Positions 1 through 5,757 of a stretch of DNA of 32,000 nucleotides are shown one piece after another. The notes below the pieces were generated by a model, which was given only the letters and a program-made list of their open reading frames with translations, ran no database searches and was not told the DNA's origin. How positions within the stretch are numbered: the stretch's first letter is position 1; the number at the start of each line of letters is the position of its first letter. The stretch lies in the NCBI RefSeq assembly GCF_018336915.1, contig NZ_CP064923.1, positions 1,890,001-1,922,000 on the forward strand. The letters are read 5' to 3'. Both the position numbers and the translations under genes were made by a program. The DNA is from Acaryochloris marina S15. Its GTDB lineage: Bacteria > Cyanobacteriota > Cyanobacteriia > Thermosynechococcales > Thermosynechococcaceae.

Positions 1-3000
1 GCGGAGTTTAGCCGGGACCGATTTTAGGGATTTGCCATTTTTTAGGACAGAAATCTGGGGTTTGCCCTTGGGGGTGATGCTTAAGCTGACGGCGACCGAA
101 TCAACATCTACGGAAACAGCACCAGCGGCCAAATCCTGAATCGCCATCCCTTCCATGGCCCATTCCAGTCGCTGCGGATCAGGATACCCAGCCGTGCGCG
201 CCAAGTTATCCATACTAATTCGAGCTGCTAGCTTCTCACTGGCTTGACGCTGGGAGCCAAATTTACGGCTCTGGCGCAGAAATTCTTGGATGAGTTGATA
301 GCGTTCTAGTAGGTCTGTTTCTCGCTTTTTCCCCCTGGCTAAAGGCAATAGGCCCAGGGCTCTAACACTATCTTGATGGCGCTTGGTTTGAATTCGCTGA
401 ATCAGGCCATCCTGATCCGTTGCTCCGGTCATGGCCTCGGCAAAGAGTTGTGCTCGCTTATGGCCCCCGCCCCCGGAGGTGTACTTGGCTGCTTCATTTA
501 AGGCTGTCCAGCGATCCGGCTTCATGCCTTTGCGAATGCGCTGAAACCAAGCCACATCTACAGCACCATCCAGCAAATCCTGGCTAGAGAGGGGCGTCCG
601 TTCCGCTATCTGAGCTGCCCATAGGTCACGAATATCAGCGTCAACCTGCCAAGCCTCATCTTTGGTATGGCCATGAAACCACCAAACCGCTTCGGCAAAT
701 CCTTTCCATCGCAAGGCATGTTCAATGTAATTCACCCATTGGGGTGCATACATGGCCAGCTCTACAAGCTGCTGGGAGGGGATTGAGGTGGCTTTAATGG
801 CCTTGGCAAAATCCTGGGGGGTTTCGTCTTCTCCTGGAAAAGAATTCCGACAAAGATGGCTAAATACCGCAGCTCGACTTTTGCTGTCAGACACCCAGCC
901 TCGGACAAATTTTTCATGATCAAACTTTTGGAGGAGGCTCACTAGAGTTGCAATGCCCTCGATTGAACTTAGATTCTTGACAACTTCAGTGGCTGCTGTG
1001 GGCAGTTCTCCTCGGGTTAGTTCGATGGTAAGGATGCGATCGCAACATTGATTCACGATCTGACCGATCTTTTGATTAGCCTGAATGTATCGATGCGGCT
1101 TCCGTTGGGTCAACTTTCGCAGTTCGTGAAACTGTAAAGACATGGGGCGCGCCCCGATTAAGTAATCCCAGAAATCTGCATCCGTGGCAGCTTCAGCACC
1201 ATAGGCTAGGGAAATTTCTCGCAACTCAGGTCGAAGGCGCTGAATAAATCCCTCTTCTTTAGTGGTTTCGAAGCGGTCATAACTATAGTGCGTTTCTCCA
1301 GATTTGACTTGCCAATGGGGGACACTATCATCCCTAGGTTCATCAATCCAGCGCAGGAGCTGCCATAGGTGTCGAATCTGGGCCACAGACCATTGCGTTG
1401 AATAATCATGGAAATGGGCTCTGGCTAAATTCAGCCATACCAACAATCGTGAATTACGCCACTCCTTCTGCTTGCCTGCCCTCTGTTGATGGATGATGGC
1501 GAGGGTATATTGAGCGGTATTTAACAGGGCATCAACTAAATTTTGAGGTGGCTCCAGATAAATGAGCCAAGATAGAAGATCGGATATCCACGGGTAGGTT
1601 AGATTAATCGGGGTAACCCAACGTTCAAAAAGTTTAAGTTGCCATTTGGGTGGTTCGTTGCATCCTTGATCCATCCAAAAGTTGTAGTGAAATGACATGC
1701 TGCCCGCACCATGGCAAGCCGCAATGGCCCGAATGATTTCCAACCCGTCTGGATCTCGTAGGGATTCTGGGCGGTTTTCTAGCCATGTTTGCCAAACCTC
1801 TGCCAGGGGAAATCTTTTCAGATTCTCCTCCTGAGATAGCTTTAAATCGGGTGATGGAAACCAGTGAATATTCCCCAATAATTCTTCCTCGGGGTAGCCG
1901 TGATCAAGCACAACCCCGTCAGTGCAATGCGCCTGGATCAGCGCATTTAAAGCGGTCAGTATTTCCTGGGCTGCCTCTGACACTAAGGGAATGGGATGTT
2001 CGGGTTGCTCGGGGTATTGGGGATGCGATCGCAACTCCCAGGCCGCCAAACCTAAGGCATCATCCAAGGTAGGAATATCCTGTTGATCCGCCATCAGCTG
2101 ATCAAGCAACTCTTGCTCACTCGCCGTCCGCTTAGACCGCTGGCTGGCATAGGCTTCAGCGACGGGTTTGACCTGGCCCCGCTCCGCTTGCTGGAGCTGA
2201 ACAAGCAGTTCTAACCCGGCTTTTCGCTGAGGGGCTTTAGACGTATTCAGAAGACGTTGGGCACTCTCAATAGCAGCATCATCTTCTTGTTTCAACAACA
2301 AGGACAGCACGCCTCTTCTCAGGTCTGCTGCTTTGCGATGCAGCATAGATTCTAGGGTTTGGGCCTCAGTGGAAGTCGGACAATAGCGGTGAGCGTTAAG
2401 AGCCTTCATGATTTGCTCCCGGACATAGCTACTGCGATCGCGAATCAGATCGAAAATAACATCCTGAGCCTGATCATCCCAGGTCTGTTTGGCAATCAGC
2501 AGTTTCCCCACTTGAATGCGGCCCCATTCCCCCATCATTGTGCGATAAGGCATTAACCGCTCAACGGGGCGATTGCCTAAACTGTGAAGCAGGTTAGCGG
2601 TAATCTCTTGGAGGGTAATGGTGTAACTCATCCATGACCATACCAAGGGTTCAATTGGCGTTTCCTTGGCAGAAAAACGACTGATAAATGCTTCCAAAGC
2701 TTCAAAATCAGCCTTGCTTCCCAACACCAGATAGGCCTGAACGGCAACTCGGATATCCGGGTCGGCAAGACTTTGAGTGATGGCCTCTCTGGCTTGACCA
2801 ATATCCAATTGACGAAGCAGGTAAGCCGCCACAAATCGCTGTTCGACGGTCCCCGTTTCTAAGAGTTCAACCGCAGGGGGAATCGCTAGATCGACATTCT
2901 CAAAAGCCAGAGACCAGAGGGCGATGTAAACCTGGTTGGGGTCGTCACTTTGGAGCAACTCAGTTCGTTGGTTGGGATGCTCCAACAGTTGGAGAAGGAG

Positions 3001-3843
3001 TTCTAAACTCTCTTGAACCCGACGCTGGTGCTCCACCTCCCAACCCAGGCCAAACCACACATCCACGGCCCGAACCGTGGCGCTAAAGCGCACAAGATTA
3101 TGGTCTAAGATAACGCGGACGATACGCTGAAAGGCTTGGGGATGGGCTTCATCAATGGTTTCTAAAATGGTTTGTCGTAGCCCTTCTTGGCGTTGGGCAG
3201 CCACTAGTAGATTTTTAATCAGCTCCCAGCCGTCGGGCCGATTGGCCACTAACAGGGCACGAGTTACATGCCGGCCCATGGCACCAATCTCATGGTCACC
3301 CCGAGCGGAGTCACAGAGAATCTCGAAAACCTGATCGCCTAAGGTATCGCCTTGGTTAATGGCTGCTGCGAACAGGTACCCGAGATCATTACCATAGCCA
3401 AGATAAGGTGCCCAAGCCGCATACCAGTCCAGGGACTGTTCAAAACCTCGGATAACTCCCAGTAACGACTGAATAAAATTTCGATGGGCAATCTTATAGT
3501 GCTCAGGATGGTCCGACCGAAAGCCTCTGCGAGTGTAACCCACCTGATAGAGAATCAGGTCGTAAGCCCGCAGTACATAGTCACTAATTTGAGGGAATAA
3601 CACCTCAAAAAGTTGGCTGCGCTCTACTTCTGCCAGCTCAACCGCGTCCTGAAACGGTTGCCAATACGGTTCTCGATCATAGGGATTGCTCGATTCGTTG
3701 GGGGAGATTTCCAGGTGGAGCATTCTTAGCCCAATATGATTCAAGTTCTCGGGTAATGCGGCAAGTTCTGTTCTGCGACGATCCAGCCAGGTTTCAACCC
3801 GGAATTTCTTGAGAGACTCCTGAGCAAGTTCACGTTTAAGCAT
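1..3843 (-). CDS. Giant (>1,281 aa; C-terminus outside the window) helical-repeat protein of unknown function, tentatively DUF4132 / MolR-YehI-like
   Basis: Manual reverse-strand translation from ATG (3843..3841) gives 1,281 sense codons to position 1 with no stop (MLKRELAQESLKKFRVETWLDRRRTEL ... VLKNGKSLKSVPAKLR). It is absent from the supplied track, presumably because its stop lies outside the window. The four short ORFs the track lists inside this span are on the other strand or, for the two minus-strand ones, in another frame. C-terminal motifs (AAKYTSGGGGHKRAQLFAEAM, RALGLLPL, SQRQASEKLAARISMDNLARTAGYPDPQRLEWAME) match my memory of large DUF4132-containing proteins. This is not verified. 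Confidence 0.85.
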   Translation of the reverse strand, partial: MLKRELAQESLKKFRVETWLDRRRTELAALPENLNHIGLRMLHLEISPNESSNPYDREPYWQPFQDAVELAEVERSQLFEVLFPQISDYVLRAYDLILYQVGYTRRGFRSDHPEHYKIAHRNFIQSLLGVIRGFEQSLDWYAAWAPYLGYGNDLGYLFAAAINQGDTLGDQVFEILCDSARGDHEIGAMGRHVTRALLVANRPDGWELIKNLLVAAQRQEGLRQTILETIDEAHPQAFQRIVRVILDHNLVRFSATVRAVDVWFGLGWEVEHQRRVQESLELLLQLLEHPNQRTELLQSDDPNQVYIALWSLAFENVDLAIPPAVELLETGTVEQRFVAAYLLRQLDIGQAREAITQSLADPDIRVAVQAYLVLGSKADFEALEAFISRFSAKETPIEPLVWSWMSYTITLQEITANLLHSLGNRPVERLMPYRTMMGEWGRIQVGKLLIAKQTWDDQAQDVIFDLIRDRSSYVREQIMKALNAHRYCPTSTEAQTLESMLHRKAADLRRGVLSLLLKQEDDAAIESAQRLLNTSKAPQRKAGLELLVQLQQAERGQVKPVAEAYASQRSKRTASEQELLDQLMADQQDIPTLDDALGLAAWELRSHPQYPEQPEHPIPLVSEAAQEILTALNALIQAHCTDGVVLDHGYPEEELLGNIHWFPSPDLKLSQEENLKRFPLAEVWQTWLENRPESLRDPDGLEIIRAIAACHGAGSMSFHYNFWMDQGCNEPPKWQLKLFERWVTPINLTYPWISDLLSWLIYLEPPQNLVDALLNTAQYTLAIIHQQRAGKQKEWRNSRLLVWLNLARAHFHDYSTQWSVAQIRHLWQLLRWIDEPRDDSVPHWQVKSGETHYSYDRFETTKEEGFIQRLRPELREISLAYGAEAATDADFWDYLIGARPMSLQFHELRKLTQRKPHRYIQANQKIGQIVNQCCDRILTIELTRGELPTAATEVVKNLSSIEGIATLVSLLQKFDHEKFVRGWVSDSKSRAAVFSHLCRNSFPGEDETPQDFAKAIKATSIPSQQLVELAMYAPQWVNYIEHALRWKGFAEAVWWFHGHTKDEAWQVDADIRDLWAAQIAERTPLSSQDLLDGAVDVAWFQRIRKGMKPDRWTALNEAAKYTSGGGGHKRAQLFAEAMTGATDQDGLIQRIQTKRHQDSVRALGLLPLARGKKRETDLLERYQLIQEFLRQSRKFGSQRQASEKLAARISMDNLARTAGYPDPQRLEWAMEGMAIQDLAAGAVSVDVDSVAVSLSITPKGKPQISVLKNGKSLKSVPAKLR

Positions 3844-3844
3844 G

Positions 3845-4351
3845 TTATCTACCCACCAGTGCAACGAGTCTAATAAACGTTAAGCGGCTATCGAGCTTGA
3901 GGTGCACAGTGGCATCTAACTCTTCCTGCTGTACATCATCGAGAAACACGTAGTACAACCCGTCGATAAAGCCCATAATGGCGGTCTCGATAGCCGCTTC
4001 TTGATCCACGACTTGCTCAAAGTCGCGATCACCCAGGGTTACTTTGCCCTCAACCAGGCCCTGATGGATCGCATCCTTACTCAGGAACTGCTGCAGCTTC
4101 TGCTCCGTTTGCCGCTGTTGGAATGCCTGTACTTCAGCTCTGACGACGCAGGTGATCAGATCACGTAAAGTGAAGGGCGAGTTTAGTTGAGACGGAGGTA
4201 TAGGAACGGACCAGTCTGAGAAGATGGGGCGCCGTTTCCCAATGACTTTGCCCTCAACGGTGATACAGAAGGTCATTGTGATCAGAAGGAGGATTAGTGA
4301 AACAAATGTACTATAGCTAACGCAAATTAAATTGTCATCAGTGGAAAACAC
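3845..4351 (-). CDS. Hypothetical protein (168 aa from GTG 4351, or about 143 aa from ATG 4276), translationally coupled to the giant ORF
   Basis: ORF in the track. Its TAA (3847..3845) lies 1 nt before the ATG of the giant ORF (TAAcATG). The longer form adds a hydrophobic stretch (FVSLILLLITMTFCITV) that could be a membrane anchor. I recognise no family. Confidence 0.6.
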   Translation of the reverse strand: MFSTDDNLICVSYSTFVSLILLLITMTFCITVEGKVIGKRRPIFSDWSVPIPPSQLNSPFTLRDLITCVVRAEVQAFQQRQTEQKLQQFLSKDAIHQGLVEGKVTLGDRDFEQVVDQEAAIETAIMGFIDGLYYVFLDDVQQEELDATVHLKLDSRLTFIRLVALVGR

Positions 4352-4377
4352 AGAATATTGCTAGGAAATGGAAGTGC

Positions 4378-4581
4378 TCAATCTACTTCCAAGGAATGTT
4401 CAACCAAGAACCGCCCCGCCCATAATGCTCCCAGATTGCTCTCATAGAATTCACCATCGGTATGGACCTGTCCTTCAGGGGTGATCACCCAACATTGATA
4501 TCCCCATTCCAATGCATAGGAGATACCCACCAGCCATCCACCCGGAAATCCAAATAAATCTGTTATGGAGTCTATTGCCAT
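4378..4581 (-). CDS. Small hypothetical protein (67 aa)
   Basis: ORF in the track. There is a strong Shine-Dalgarno sequence, AGGGAGGG, 4 nt upstream of the ATG on the minus strand. It is the first gene of the minus-strand module divergent from recA. No family recognised. Confidence 0.55.
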   Translation of the reverse strand: MAIDSITDLFGFPGGWLVGISYALEWGYQCWVITPEGQVHTDGEFYESNLGALWAGRFLVEHSLEVD

Positions 4582-4626
4582 TCAACCCTCCCTACGAGGA
4601 GGAAAAGAGAAACTTTTTTTGTTCTG

Positions 4627-4658
4627 TTGACACAGAATTAGTACAAGTATACTATACT
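4627..4658 (+). promoter_or_regulatory. Putative recA promoter (-35 TTGACA; -10 TACTAT/TATACT) overlapping a LexA-box-like palindrome
   Basis: TTGACA lies at 4627-4632. -10-like hexamers lie at 4648-4653, 4650-4655 (17-nt spacer) and 4653-4658. AGTAC-AAG-TATAC-T (4640-4653) matches the cyanobacterial LexA box RGTAC-N3-DGTWC-B with one mismatch. AGTATACT (4646-4653) is a perfect 8-bp palindrome. The site is about 45 nt upstream of the recA ATG. Confidence 0.35.
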
Positions 4659-4698
4659 AGTCGAACAACCTCAAATTATCCCTTTGGAGATCCCGATC

Positions 4699-5757
4699 AT
4701 GGCCACCCATACTGACGCTTCGGAAAAGCAAAAAGCCCTGGACTTGGTGATGAAAAATGTGGAACGCACCTTTGGCAAAGGGGCGATTATGCGTCTTGGG
4801 GATGCCACTCGGATGCAGATTGAAACCATCTCCTCAGGGGCTTTAACCCTAGATCTAGCCTTGGGTGGTGGACTGCCAAGAGGCCGGGTGATCGAGATAT
4901 ACGGCCCTGAGAGTTCTGGAAAAACTACCGTAGCGTTACATGCGATCGCACAGATCCAAAAAAACGGTGGAGTAGCCGCCTTCGTCGATGCCGAACATGC
5001 CCTTGATCCAGTCTATGCCGCTGCCTTAGGGGTAGATGTTTCTGAATTACTCGTTAGCCAGCCTGACTCTGGAGAGATGGCTCTAGAAATTGTCGATCAG
5101 CTGGTTCGCTCCAGTGCCGTGGATCTCGTTGTTATCGATTCCGTCGCCGCCCTGACGCCTCGCGCTGAAATTGAAGGCGATATGGGCGACTCCCACATGG
5201 GTCTGCAAGCTCGACTGATGAGTCAAGCCCTGCGCAAAATCACTAGCAATATTTCTAAGTCCGGCAGTACCGTTATCTTTTTGAATCAGCTGCGCCAAAA
5301 AATTGGCGTTACCTACGGTAATCCTGAAGTCACCACAGGCGGTAACGCCCTCAAATTCTACGCTTCCGTTCGTCTCGATATTCGTCGCATTCAAACCCTC
5401 AAGAAAGGCACAGATATGTTTGGCATTCGGGCCAAAGTGAAAGTCGCCAAGAACAAAGTTGCTCCTCCGTTTCGGATTGCTGAGTTTGACATTCTGTTCG
5501 GCCAGGGTATTTCCACTATTGGCTGCCTCGTTGATATGGCAGAAGAAACGGATGTGATTGTCCGCAAAGGAGCTTGGTATAGCTATGACGGCAACAACAT
5601 TGGCCAGGGCCGAGAAAATACGATTCAGTACTTTACCGATAACCCCGAATTTTCTGAAGATGTCGAGCGCCAAGTTCGCCAAAAGTTGGAATTGGGGGCT
5701 GAAGTATCCGCCAACTCGATTACAGCTGTGGATACAGAGGAAGAAGAAGAGGCATAA
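4699..5757 (+). CDS. recA: Recombinase RecA
   Basis: [35 protein letters not shown]..., with Walker [10 protein letters not shown] and the canonical RecA core throughout. I take ATG 4699 as the start rather than the TTG at 4684 used by the track. Confidence 0.98.

Follow-up and report, generated by a model that had tools for sequence, protein, structure and literature searches.

The left end of a 32,000-nucleotide (nt) stretch of the Acaryochloris marina S15 genome (contig NZ_CP064923.1, forward-strand positions 1,890,001 to 1,922,000; hereafter, the window) carries three minus-strand genes divergent from recA, encoding a 67-amino-acid (aa) protein, a 143-aa protein, and a giant protein whose gene runs off the end. 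Homology searches revealed that the 143-aa and giant genes form a conserved two-gene unit, orthologous to the damage-inducible pair drA0165-drA0166 of Deinococcus radiodurans. We consider it probable that two neighboring SOS-type units lie side by side at this locus, and that the pair is held by LexA, is induced by DNA damage, and acts as a complex.

The giant gene is intact and encodes a three-domain protein

An earlier note on this DNA had described a giant minus-strand open reading frame (ORF) starting at ATG 3843, absent from the supplied ORF list and continuing past the window. Translation of window positions 1 to 3843 confirmed 1,281 sense codons with zero stops, a run whose chance probability is approximately (61/64)^1281, or ~1e-27 by our own arithmetic. 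The product was 100% identical, over its full length, to residues 1 to 1281 of a 1,638-aa protein (P0001) labelled at NCBI as "DUF5724 domain-containing protein [Acaryochloris marina]." The entire gene is present on a Logan contig (L001), where a convergent gene for a cyclopropane-fatty-acid-type methyltransferase comes after it. The giant gene is therefore real, intact, and catalogued before; its absence from the ORF list reflects a listing rule that leaves out ORFs running off an end of the source.

The Pfam model of DUF5724 (PF18991; 1,214 positions) matched at an E value of 7e-231, its 770 bits far exceeding the gathering score of 25, and gave the same result in the full protein. In full-length P0001, DUF4132 (PF13569) was found at aa 1270 to 1446 (E value, 1.4e-50) and DUF7737, entirely beyond the window, at aa 1536 to 1637 (E value, 9e-37). 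The window part alone gave no Pfam match to DUF4132 at an E value of ≤1, with just 12 residues of the domain inside it. The earlier assignment to DUF4132 was thus right as to the domain, which is present in the full protein, but the motifs quoted for it (aa ~1057 to 1265) sit in the C-terminal part of the DUF5724 model and not in DUF4132 proper; VLKNGKSLKSVPAKLR is the motif that overlaps the 12 in-window DUF4132 residues. The helical-repeat character that had been proposed was borne out by a HEAT_2 repeat (aa 456 to 512), by matches at aa 296 to 391 to alphaRep proteins (designed, HEAT-like), which were the sole matches in a Protein Data Bank (PDB) sequence search, and by an AlphaFold2 (AF2) segment that was all-helical at aa 1020 to 1240. 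As had been reported, P0001 contains no Walker A or HExxH motif, nor does it contain a CxxC motif, and Pfam and motif checks detected no nuclease, protease, NTPase, or other effector domain. We concur that the family has no established molecular function; a literature search gave no paper mentioning DUF5724 by name.

The giant and 143-aa genes form a conserved two-gene unit

To place the giant gene in context, one genome per GTDB species was scanned. At least 583 loci with relatives were found, and 80 were kept, drawn from Cyanobacteria, Planctomycetota, Chloroflexota, Verrucomicrobiota, Armatimonadota, Gemmatimonadota, Deinococcota, Bacteroidota, and a few proteobacterial bins. Used as a tblastn query, the 143-aa protein matched the DNA just ahead of the giant gene, and in its orientation, in almost all loci for which upstream sequence existed (E values down to 1e-81). 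A profile search of the remaining loci brought the count of loci with the small gene immediately before the giant to 67 of the 69 that have upstream DNA, in about ten phyla; L015 and L042 were the only loci that had 10 kb of upstream DNA yet lacked a small-family gene. Most gaps between the two genes fall between -4 and +4 nt. The TAA stop of the window's 143-aa gene (3845 to 3847) lies one base ahead of the giant's ATG, which suggests translational coupling of the two genes. Furthermore, pairwise identities of the small and giant proteins were correlated (r = 0.66), and clustering of ORFs across 81 loci returned two real conserved families only, the giant and an ~145-aa protein, the remaining large clusters being shadow ORFs within the giant gene. 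Collectively, these comparisons show the pair to be one conserved unit across about ten phyla.

The three-gene module envisaged in the earlier note, with the 67-aa gene as its third member, did not hold up. Among the loci related to the giant, the 67-aa gene and recA adjoin it solely in two Acaryochloris loci; the conserved unit therefore consists of two genes, not three. Both small ORFs that had been noted are present, the larger of them (3845 to 4351) either as a 168-aa form from a GTG or as a 143-aa form from ATG 4276. The GTG start was rejected because homologues align from residues 1 to 7 of the 143-aa form and because the GTG would lie upstream of the predicted promoter and operator.

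Some members depart from this layout. One Alcaligenaceae metagenome-assembled genome has two giant genes on separate contigs (L042 and L045). On L096 (1201 to 1653) and L097 (443 to 895), a small-family gene (150 aa, VGG end) has no adjoining giant gene; its upstream DNA has the palindrome AGTTCGCATGAACT at -32 along with a TATAGT -10 box, and the next genes encode a 171-aa unknown protein and then a MAPEG protein. Hence the small gene does not always accompany a giant gene. On L078 (696 to 6649), in a bin labelled as a methanogenic archaeon (Candidatus Methanorudis), the small gene (GGIF end) comes after the giant gene, either by horizontal transfer into an archaeon or through a binning error.

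The pair is orthologous to drA0165-drA0166 of Deinococcus radiodurans

A tblastn search of PLSDB with P0001 matched four Deinococcus secondary replicons, including chromosome II of D. radiodurans, at ~39% identity over aa 74 to 1637. Just after trxC, the D. radiodurans replicon encodes a 134-aa "hypothetical protein" ending in LAGG, and 2 nt downstream, adjacent and on the same strand, a 1,626-aa giant with DUF5724, DUF4132, and DUF7737, as in P0001. Aligned to the small-family profile with hhalign, the 134-aa protein scored a probability of 99.9% and an E value of 2e-34. The sequence GGTTATGCTATTTACATAAC upstream of these genes is exactly the radiation/desiccation response motif (RDRM) given for DRA0165 in PMC8533742. 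D. psychrotolerans retains the palindrome, and in D. ficus symmetric changes (TTCTG...CAGAA versus TTATG...CATAA) leave it palindromic. No RDRM was found near the Trueperaceae gene; the Trueperaceae small protein, tried as a search route to Deinococcus, gave no named match, and it was the tblastn search of plasmids and secondary replicons that succeeded. By homology, gene order, and domain content, the pair is shown to be orthologous to drA0165-drA0166.

The pair is accordingly not the undescribed system that had been suggested, as its Deinococcus orthologue has published expression and knockout data (PMC8533742, PMC9650054). Expression of drA0165-drA0166 rises strongly when DdrO is depleted, and mitomycin C induces the DRA0166 protein in a way that depends on IrrE (PMC8533742). 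The small protein, named SEP068184, rises after gamma rays and H2O2 (PMC9650054). The claims in the latter study that the small protein is genus-specific and that it has no RDRM are contradicted by the loci and the palindromes above, as well as by PMC8533742, and are incorrect. The Deinococcus and Acaryochloris pairs share their gene order and the three domains of the giant, and the former is DNA-damage inducible. They differ in that the Deinococcus pair is controlled by DdrO and IrrE through the RDRM palindrome, not a LexA-type box, and does not lie beside recA.

LexA-like boxes at the pair and at recA

Candidate operators were scored with a weight matrix built from the 48 cyanobacterial LexA boxes that Li et al. 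2010 (PMC3091678) list in their Table 1. The two best-scoring sites of the whole window (Table 1 below) both fall at the genes considered here, one of them 36 nt before ATG 4276 and the other between recA and the 67-aa gene. Both scores are within the range of the published boxes, and both sites are kept in A. marina strain MBIC11017 while their flanks vary. The predicted -10 box of the pair overlaps the first site, and this arrangement of -10 box and palindrome recurs in L003, L005, L050, and L096. At the second site, the promoter-like sequences of recA and the 67-aa gene are face to face, with both -10 boxes on the box, and a single operator there could shut both genes. The boxes overlap the promoters as the 14-bp RGTACNNNDGTWCB element overlaps those of recA, lexA, and other genes in the cyanobacterial LexA regulon (Mazon 2004; PMC3091678). 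In addition, A. marina's own lexA (AM1_3948 in MBIC11017) has the box AGTACAGGTGTTTT (PMC3091678), which has an unusual GTTT half-site in common with AGTACATTTGTTTC. The earlier note had the entire module share a 117-bp control region with recA. The region between the 67-aa gene and the recA ATG at 4699 (4582 to 4698) is indeed 117 bp, but the pair has its own promoter-like site and box at 4299 to 4338. An Rfam scan of the whole window returned nothing.

The putative operator is widespread in cyanobacterial copies. Within 150 bp upstream of the small gene, a matrix site with an empirical P value of ≤0.044 was present in 11 of 13 cyanobacterial loci (≤0.012 in 10 of 13), mostly at -29 to -36. 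The Mazon consensus was matched with at most one mismatch in 8 of the 13, against 0.03 expected per region (binomial P, ~8e-10, uncorrected for relatedness). Three further cyanobacterial loci had one clear site, one 13-bp variant, and none, respectively. The variant, AGTACGTAGTTCT, lies upstream of the small gene of L098 (approximately 1150 to 1165); it is a 13-bp box with a 3-nt spacer, missed by the 14-bp matrix, and resembles the one-base-deleted hoxE site of Synechocystis (PMC3091678). For other phyla, candidate LexA-type patterns were scanned, including GAAC-N4-GTTC and TGTTC-N4-GAACA. One of two Verrucomicrobia loci had a one-mismatch match (P = 0.014), two loci being too few for a judgment, and the other patterns gave one isolated match only.

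The 143-aa protein is probably ubiquitin-like and its family ends mostly in Gly-Gly

The 143-aa protein had no match in Pfam, NCBIfam, or PADLOC, and its database homologues are all labelled "hypothetical." An alignment of 52 family members contains a conserved C-terminal strand and a tail reading ...SRLTFLRLVALAGG. The tail was exactly GG in 120 of 120 retrieved database homologues. Among the locus copies, 46 end in GG and 13 in GA (together, 59 of 66 loci), and a few extend two aromatic residues further (GGYF, GSIW, GSYW, GGIF, and GSFW).

The AF2 model of the small protein (predicted local distance difference test [pLDDT], 74; predicted template modelling score [pTM], 0.69) has the order strand-strand-helix-strand-strand-strand with a helical insert. 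A Foldseek search of the PDB returned mostly ubiquitin-like folds, with weak E values (0.07 to 0.7) and template modelling scores of ~0.5, normalized to the target. These neighbors were Urm1 (5zmb, 1wgk), MoaD (6jbz, 1fm0, 3rpf), and SAMP1 (2l52), and further ones were MOCS2A, ubiquitin, ISG15, and the Ras-binding domain of PI3K. An independently predicted structure of the Deinococcus orthologue had been reported to have the same neighbors (5MPO, 3PO0, 1WGK, 6JBZ, and 2L52; PMC9650054). On these models, the 143-aa protein is probably ubiquitin-like with a helical insert.

At the extreme C terminus, where Gly-Gly is typical of the family, the window copy has Gly-Arg. On the minus strand at 3845 to 3853, it ends in Val-Gly-Arg (GTG GGT AGA TAA), and the MBIC11017 copy ends in Gly-Gly (GTA GGG GGA TAA). 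One G-to-A change thus abolishes the most conserved feature of the family in the window copy, with the giant gene still intact.

The C-terminal module of the giant carries nearly invariant motifs

A model of the C-terminal 619 aa of P0001 (aa 1020 to 1638), computed by AF2 from 21 sequences, had a pLDDT of 83 and a pTM of 0.75 and was helical to approximately aa 1240 and alpha/beta beyond. The alpha/beta module, DUF4132 plus DUF7737, is rich in invariant His, Asp, and Glu. Two DUF7737 motifs, FSEVMRDLDLVVSVAHxGGVDPEASxST and VPVHSQHRGRLFLPFADDDPKTAE, are near-invariant from cyanobacteria to Bacteroidota; the model has low confidence at the second. No part of the protein is more invariant than HSQHRGRLFLPFADDDP (aa 1593 to 1608; model residues 574 to 589), which is also the sole long low-confidence segment of an otherwise confident model, with a pLDDT below 50; judging by the model, this loop may become ordered only upon binding of a ligand or partner. 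A PDB sequence-profile search with the module gave nothing. The best PDB fold match, the RWD domain of Knl1, was set aside as too weak for use (E value, 0.29). We saw no covariation between the tail type of the small protein (GG, GA, or extended) and the C-terminal motifs of the giant.

A few giants carry an additional domain. In L063, an extra C-terminal WGR domain was read by eye from the alignment, and the protein P0103 has one as well (PF05406), WGR being fused in rare members only. E. coli YehF/MolR likewise contain WGR, as does DR2173, a co-regulated protein of Deinococcus. These extra domains hint at a connection with nucleic acids or DNA breaks.

A model of two SOS-type units

In the arrangement that we favor, one unit would consist of recA and the divergent 67-aa gene, whose overlapping -10 boxes share one LexA-like operator at 4640 to 4653. 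The other would be a bicistronic, coupled operon encoding the ubiquitin-like protein and then the 1,638-aa giant, a HEAT-like solenoid (DUF5724) followed by the alpha/beta module, with its own promoter and a second LexA-like operator at 4299 to 4312. LexA would repress both units in Acaryochloris, and LexA cleavage stimulated by RecA after DNA damage would turn them on. The two proteins, made together, would act as a complex in the response to damage or oxidative stress. The position of the pair beside recA looks like local clustering of SOS-type units.

The exposed Gly-Gly could be the working part of the small protein. Its terminal carboxylate would be adenylated and then converted to a thiocarboxylate or an isopeptide, catalyzed either by the invariant C-terminal module of the giant or by a housekeeping MoeB/ThiF-type enzyme, and the solenoid would serve as scaffold, receptor, or target. 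This covalent, ubiquitin-type version of the mechanism is quite possible, at somewhat less than even chances. Purely noncovalent docking of the tail into the giant is a tenable version too, to which we give roughly one chance in three.

Several observations weigh against these proposals. As to regulation, LexA binding and damage induction of the cyanobacterial pair are predictions from sequence, and cyanobacterial LexA is not always a classical SOS repressor (PMC3091678). The cyanobacterial loci represent roughly six or seven independent lineages, and the binomial P value is uncorrected for this kinship. Two to four of these loci have no box (L004, L008, and L100, with L098 having the 13-bp variant only), and the candidate LexA-type patterns were not enriched upstream of the genes in Chloroflexota, Planctomycetota, Armatimonadota, or Gemmatimonadota. 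As to the protein, the ubiquitin-like assignment rests on fold prediction with the Foldseek E values given above. An hhalign comparison of a ubiquitin profile with the small family gave a probability of 0.1%, none of the 52 family members had a ThiS, MoaD, or ubiquitin match in Pfam at an E value of ≤1, and a PDB sequence-profile search with the family gave no match. The Gly-Arg end of the window copy would block chemistry at a terminal glycine. Clustering of flanking ORFs revealed no E1, E2, or JAB gene as a conserved neighbor of the pair, and no catalytic role can be assigned to the C-terminal 619 aa because a search of the PDB and BFVD found no solved or viral fold match below an E value of 0.02. 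In Deinococcus, deletion of the small gene raised survival of H2O2, and the small protein pulled down thioredoxin, which was proposed as its partner in place of DRA0166 (PMC9650054); DR_A0166 did not appear in those supplementary tables of that study that were searched.

That the small protein serves the giant only as a structural subunit or an assembly chaperone, its beta-grasp fold and glycines being incidental and no ubiquitin-type chemistry taking place, is unlikely on balance, although it deserves to be taken seriously. An obligate complex would fit the translational coupling and the strict co-occurrence, no E1, E2, or JAB gene lies nearby, some lineages have two aromatic residues past the glycines, and the window copy ends in GR while its giant is intact. 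However, unless the free carboxylate has a role, it is hard to account for chains that stop exactly at GG or GA in 120 of 120 homologues and in 59 of 66 loci, and at least one genome keeps the small gene apart from any giant gene (L096/L097). A role in sulfur transfer or molybdenum cofactor synthesis, with a thiocarboxylate carrier of the MoaD/ThiS type acting beside a giant akin to MolR, the "molybdate metabolism regulator," would accord with the structural neighbors (MoaD, MOCS2A, SAMP1, and Urm1) and the GG end of the family, with the naming of DUF4132 from E. coli MolR, and with the YeeE/YedE, trxC, and modA genes near the D. radiodurans pair. We nevertheless find it improbable: no MoaE, MoeB, ThiF, ThiG, or sulfur-transfer gene is conserved nearby in 66 loci, Pfam gives no ThiS or MoaD match, and control by LexA or DdrO suits a damage response better than cofactor synthesis; moeA and moeB of Deinococcus are not co-regulated (PMC8533742).

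In many defense systems, a small protein accompanies a very large, repeat-rich one, and bacterial ubiquitin-like systems such as Bil and CBASS Cap2/3 act in phage defense. An SOS-induced anti-phage or abortive-infection system, in which the giant is sensor and effector and the small protein its partner, would also fit the varying flanking genes and the several copies on megaplasmids or secondary replicons. It is very improbable in view of the high conservation across phyla and the invariant C-terminal motifs, unlike those of fast-evolving defense genes. None of the three proteins had a PADLOC match at an E value of ≤1 (nor a useful one in NCBIfam), no effector domain was detected, and no clustering with known defense genes was seen, though without a systematic test. 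Least credible of all is a three-gene system tied to recA through the shared 117-bp region. All three genes do lie on the same strand, divergent from recA, both here and in MBIC11017, and a LexA-like box lies within that region, but among the 81 loci this arrangement is confined to Acaryochloris, the pair has its own promoter-like site and operator, and relatives of the 67-aa gene adjoin recA without the pair.

Comparison with known systems

Within our model of a LexA-held, damage-induced pair, a bolder proposal is that of a new, widespread bacterial ubiquitin-like pathway, in which a MoaD/Urm1-like, GG-ending modifier works with a single ~180-kDa HEAT/DUF4132/DUF7737 giant that replaces E1, E2, E3, and JAB, the whole being wired to the repressor of each lineage (LexA in cyanobacteria, DdrO in Deinococcus). 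The giant would then be activator, ligase, receptor, or main target. We advance this tentatively and regard it as rather doubtful. Were terminal-glycine chemistry to take place, this would be a ubiquitin-like pathway without a recognizable E1, E2, or JAB, linked to genome damage or oxidative stress. Bacterial ubiquitin-like conjugation operons are sets of E1, E2, and JAB genes, as in Bil/Bub and CBASS Cap2/Cap3. Like these, the pair is a compact operon with a small, predicted beta-grasp protein bearing a terminal glycine beside its presumed partner. Unlike them, it has no E1, E2, or JAB domain detectable in or near it, and it is widespread, apparently chromosomal, under damage-type regulation, and outside defense islands. 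With MoaD, ThiS, Urm1, SAMP, and TtuB, the small family shares the predicted beta-grasp fold and the Gly-Gly at the chain end; it differs in an ~45-residue helical insert, in having no profile similarity to them, and in having as its partner a 180-kDa solenoid in place of an adjacent E1-like enzyme, MoaE, or ThiG. In the loci compared, no cognate E1-like enzyme, MoaE, ThiG, or JAB was conserved alongside the pair; such an enzyme may be encoded elsewhere in the genome.

The giant had also been compared with E. coli MolR (YehH, a pseudogene in K-12) and YehI. Both share the ~180-aa DUF4132 with it, so the comparison stands to that extent. However, the likeness is confined to this domain (in YehI, 23% identity over ~280 aa, with no DUF5724 or DUF7737), and the yeh-type context is absent. 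The E. coli neighbors are YehF (WGR), YehL (MoxR), YehM (DUF5682), YehP (VWA), and YehQ (SWIM), whereas no WGR, MoxR, VWA, or SWIM gene is conserved in the 81 loci and P0001 has no WGR domain. YehK, considered as a counterpart of the small protein, had no similarity to it. DUF4132 proteins have been tied to damage regulons before, namely, MolR (LexA) and DRA0166 (radiation/desiccation response); PMC8533742 cites a description of MolR as a member of the LexA regulon. The passages of PMC3091678 consulted do not list the pair as part of the LexA regulon, and a 2020 eLife survey of conflict systems mentions neither WGR nor MolR nor YehI. With the DUF5724 branch and its GG-ending small partner now traced from Deinococcus to cyanobacteria, Planctomycetota, and Bacteroidota, a single-species curiosity becomes a testable system, one in which a single pair appears to be controlled by two unrelated repressors, DdrO by experiment and LexA by prediction.

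Table 1. Coordinates of the features described in the text (window positions unless a contig is named)
Feature	Position	Strand	Basis
Giant gene, 5' 78% (aa 1-1281 of 1638)	1..3843	-	Translation and identity to P0001
DUF4132, first 12 residues	nt 1-36	-	Pfam on full P0001
DUF5724 match	aa 78-1230, nt 154-3612	-	Pfam PF18991
HEAT_2 repeat	aa 456-512, nt 2308-2478	-	Pfam
143-aa gene, predicted ubiquitin-like (beta-grasp, MoaD/Urm1-like)	3845..4276	-	Homology and AF2/Foldseek
LexA-like box AGTACATTTGTTTC	4299..4312	-	Matrix score 13.4, second-best in 32-kb window
Sigma-70-like promoter of the pair, ATGACA, 17-nt spacer, TATAGT	4310..4338	-	Promoter scan
67-aa gene, strong Shine-Dalgarno GGGAGGG	4378..4581	-	ORF list, family search
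recA promoter-like site, TTGACA/TACTAT	4627-4655	+	Promoter scan
LexA-like box AGTATACTTGTACT (minus-strand reading)	4640..4653		Matrix score 15.8, best in 32-kb window
67-aa gene promoter-like site, TTGAGG/TATACT	4674-4646	-	Promoter scan
recA (context), divergent partner of 67-aa gene	4699..5757	+	ORF list
RDRM-type palindromes, three Deinococcus species	L083 3311-3330; L093 819-835; L094 841-857		

The 67-aa gene belongs with recA

The 67-aa ORF had been called family-less, yet 19 relatives, mostly of 62 to 79 aa, turned up among 1.84 billion representative proteins; they share W16, C30-W31, P35, A52, and G56-R57. Between the two Acaryochloris strains, the gene has 11 synonymous and 6 nonsynonymous codon differences, which fits purifying selection. 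On two unrelated contigs (L084 and L086), a family member is divergent from recA without the pair, and LexA-like boxes, AGTGCTATTGTACT and AGTACACTTGTTCC, lie between the two genes (L084, 1641 to 3225; L086, 1 to 845). Other family members stand in unrelated contexts and have no LexA-like box. Judged by this gene context, the 67-aa gene belongs with recA and not with the pair, and its family may be a recA-associated small protein under LexA control. On L086, the relative of the 67-aa gene is followed by SRAP and NucS-like genes.

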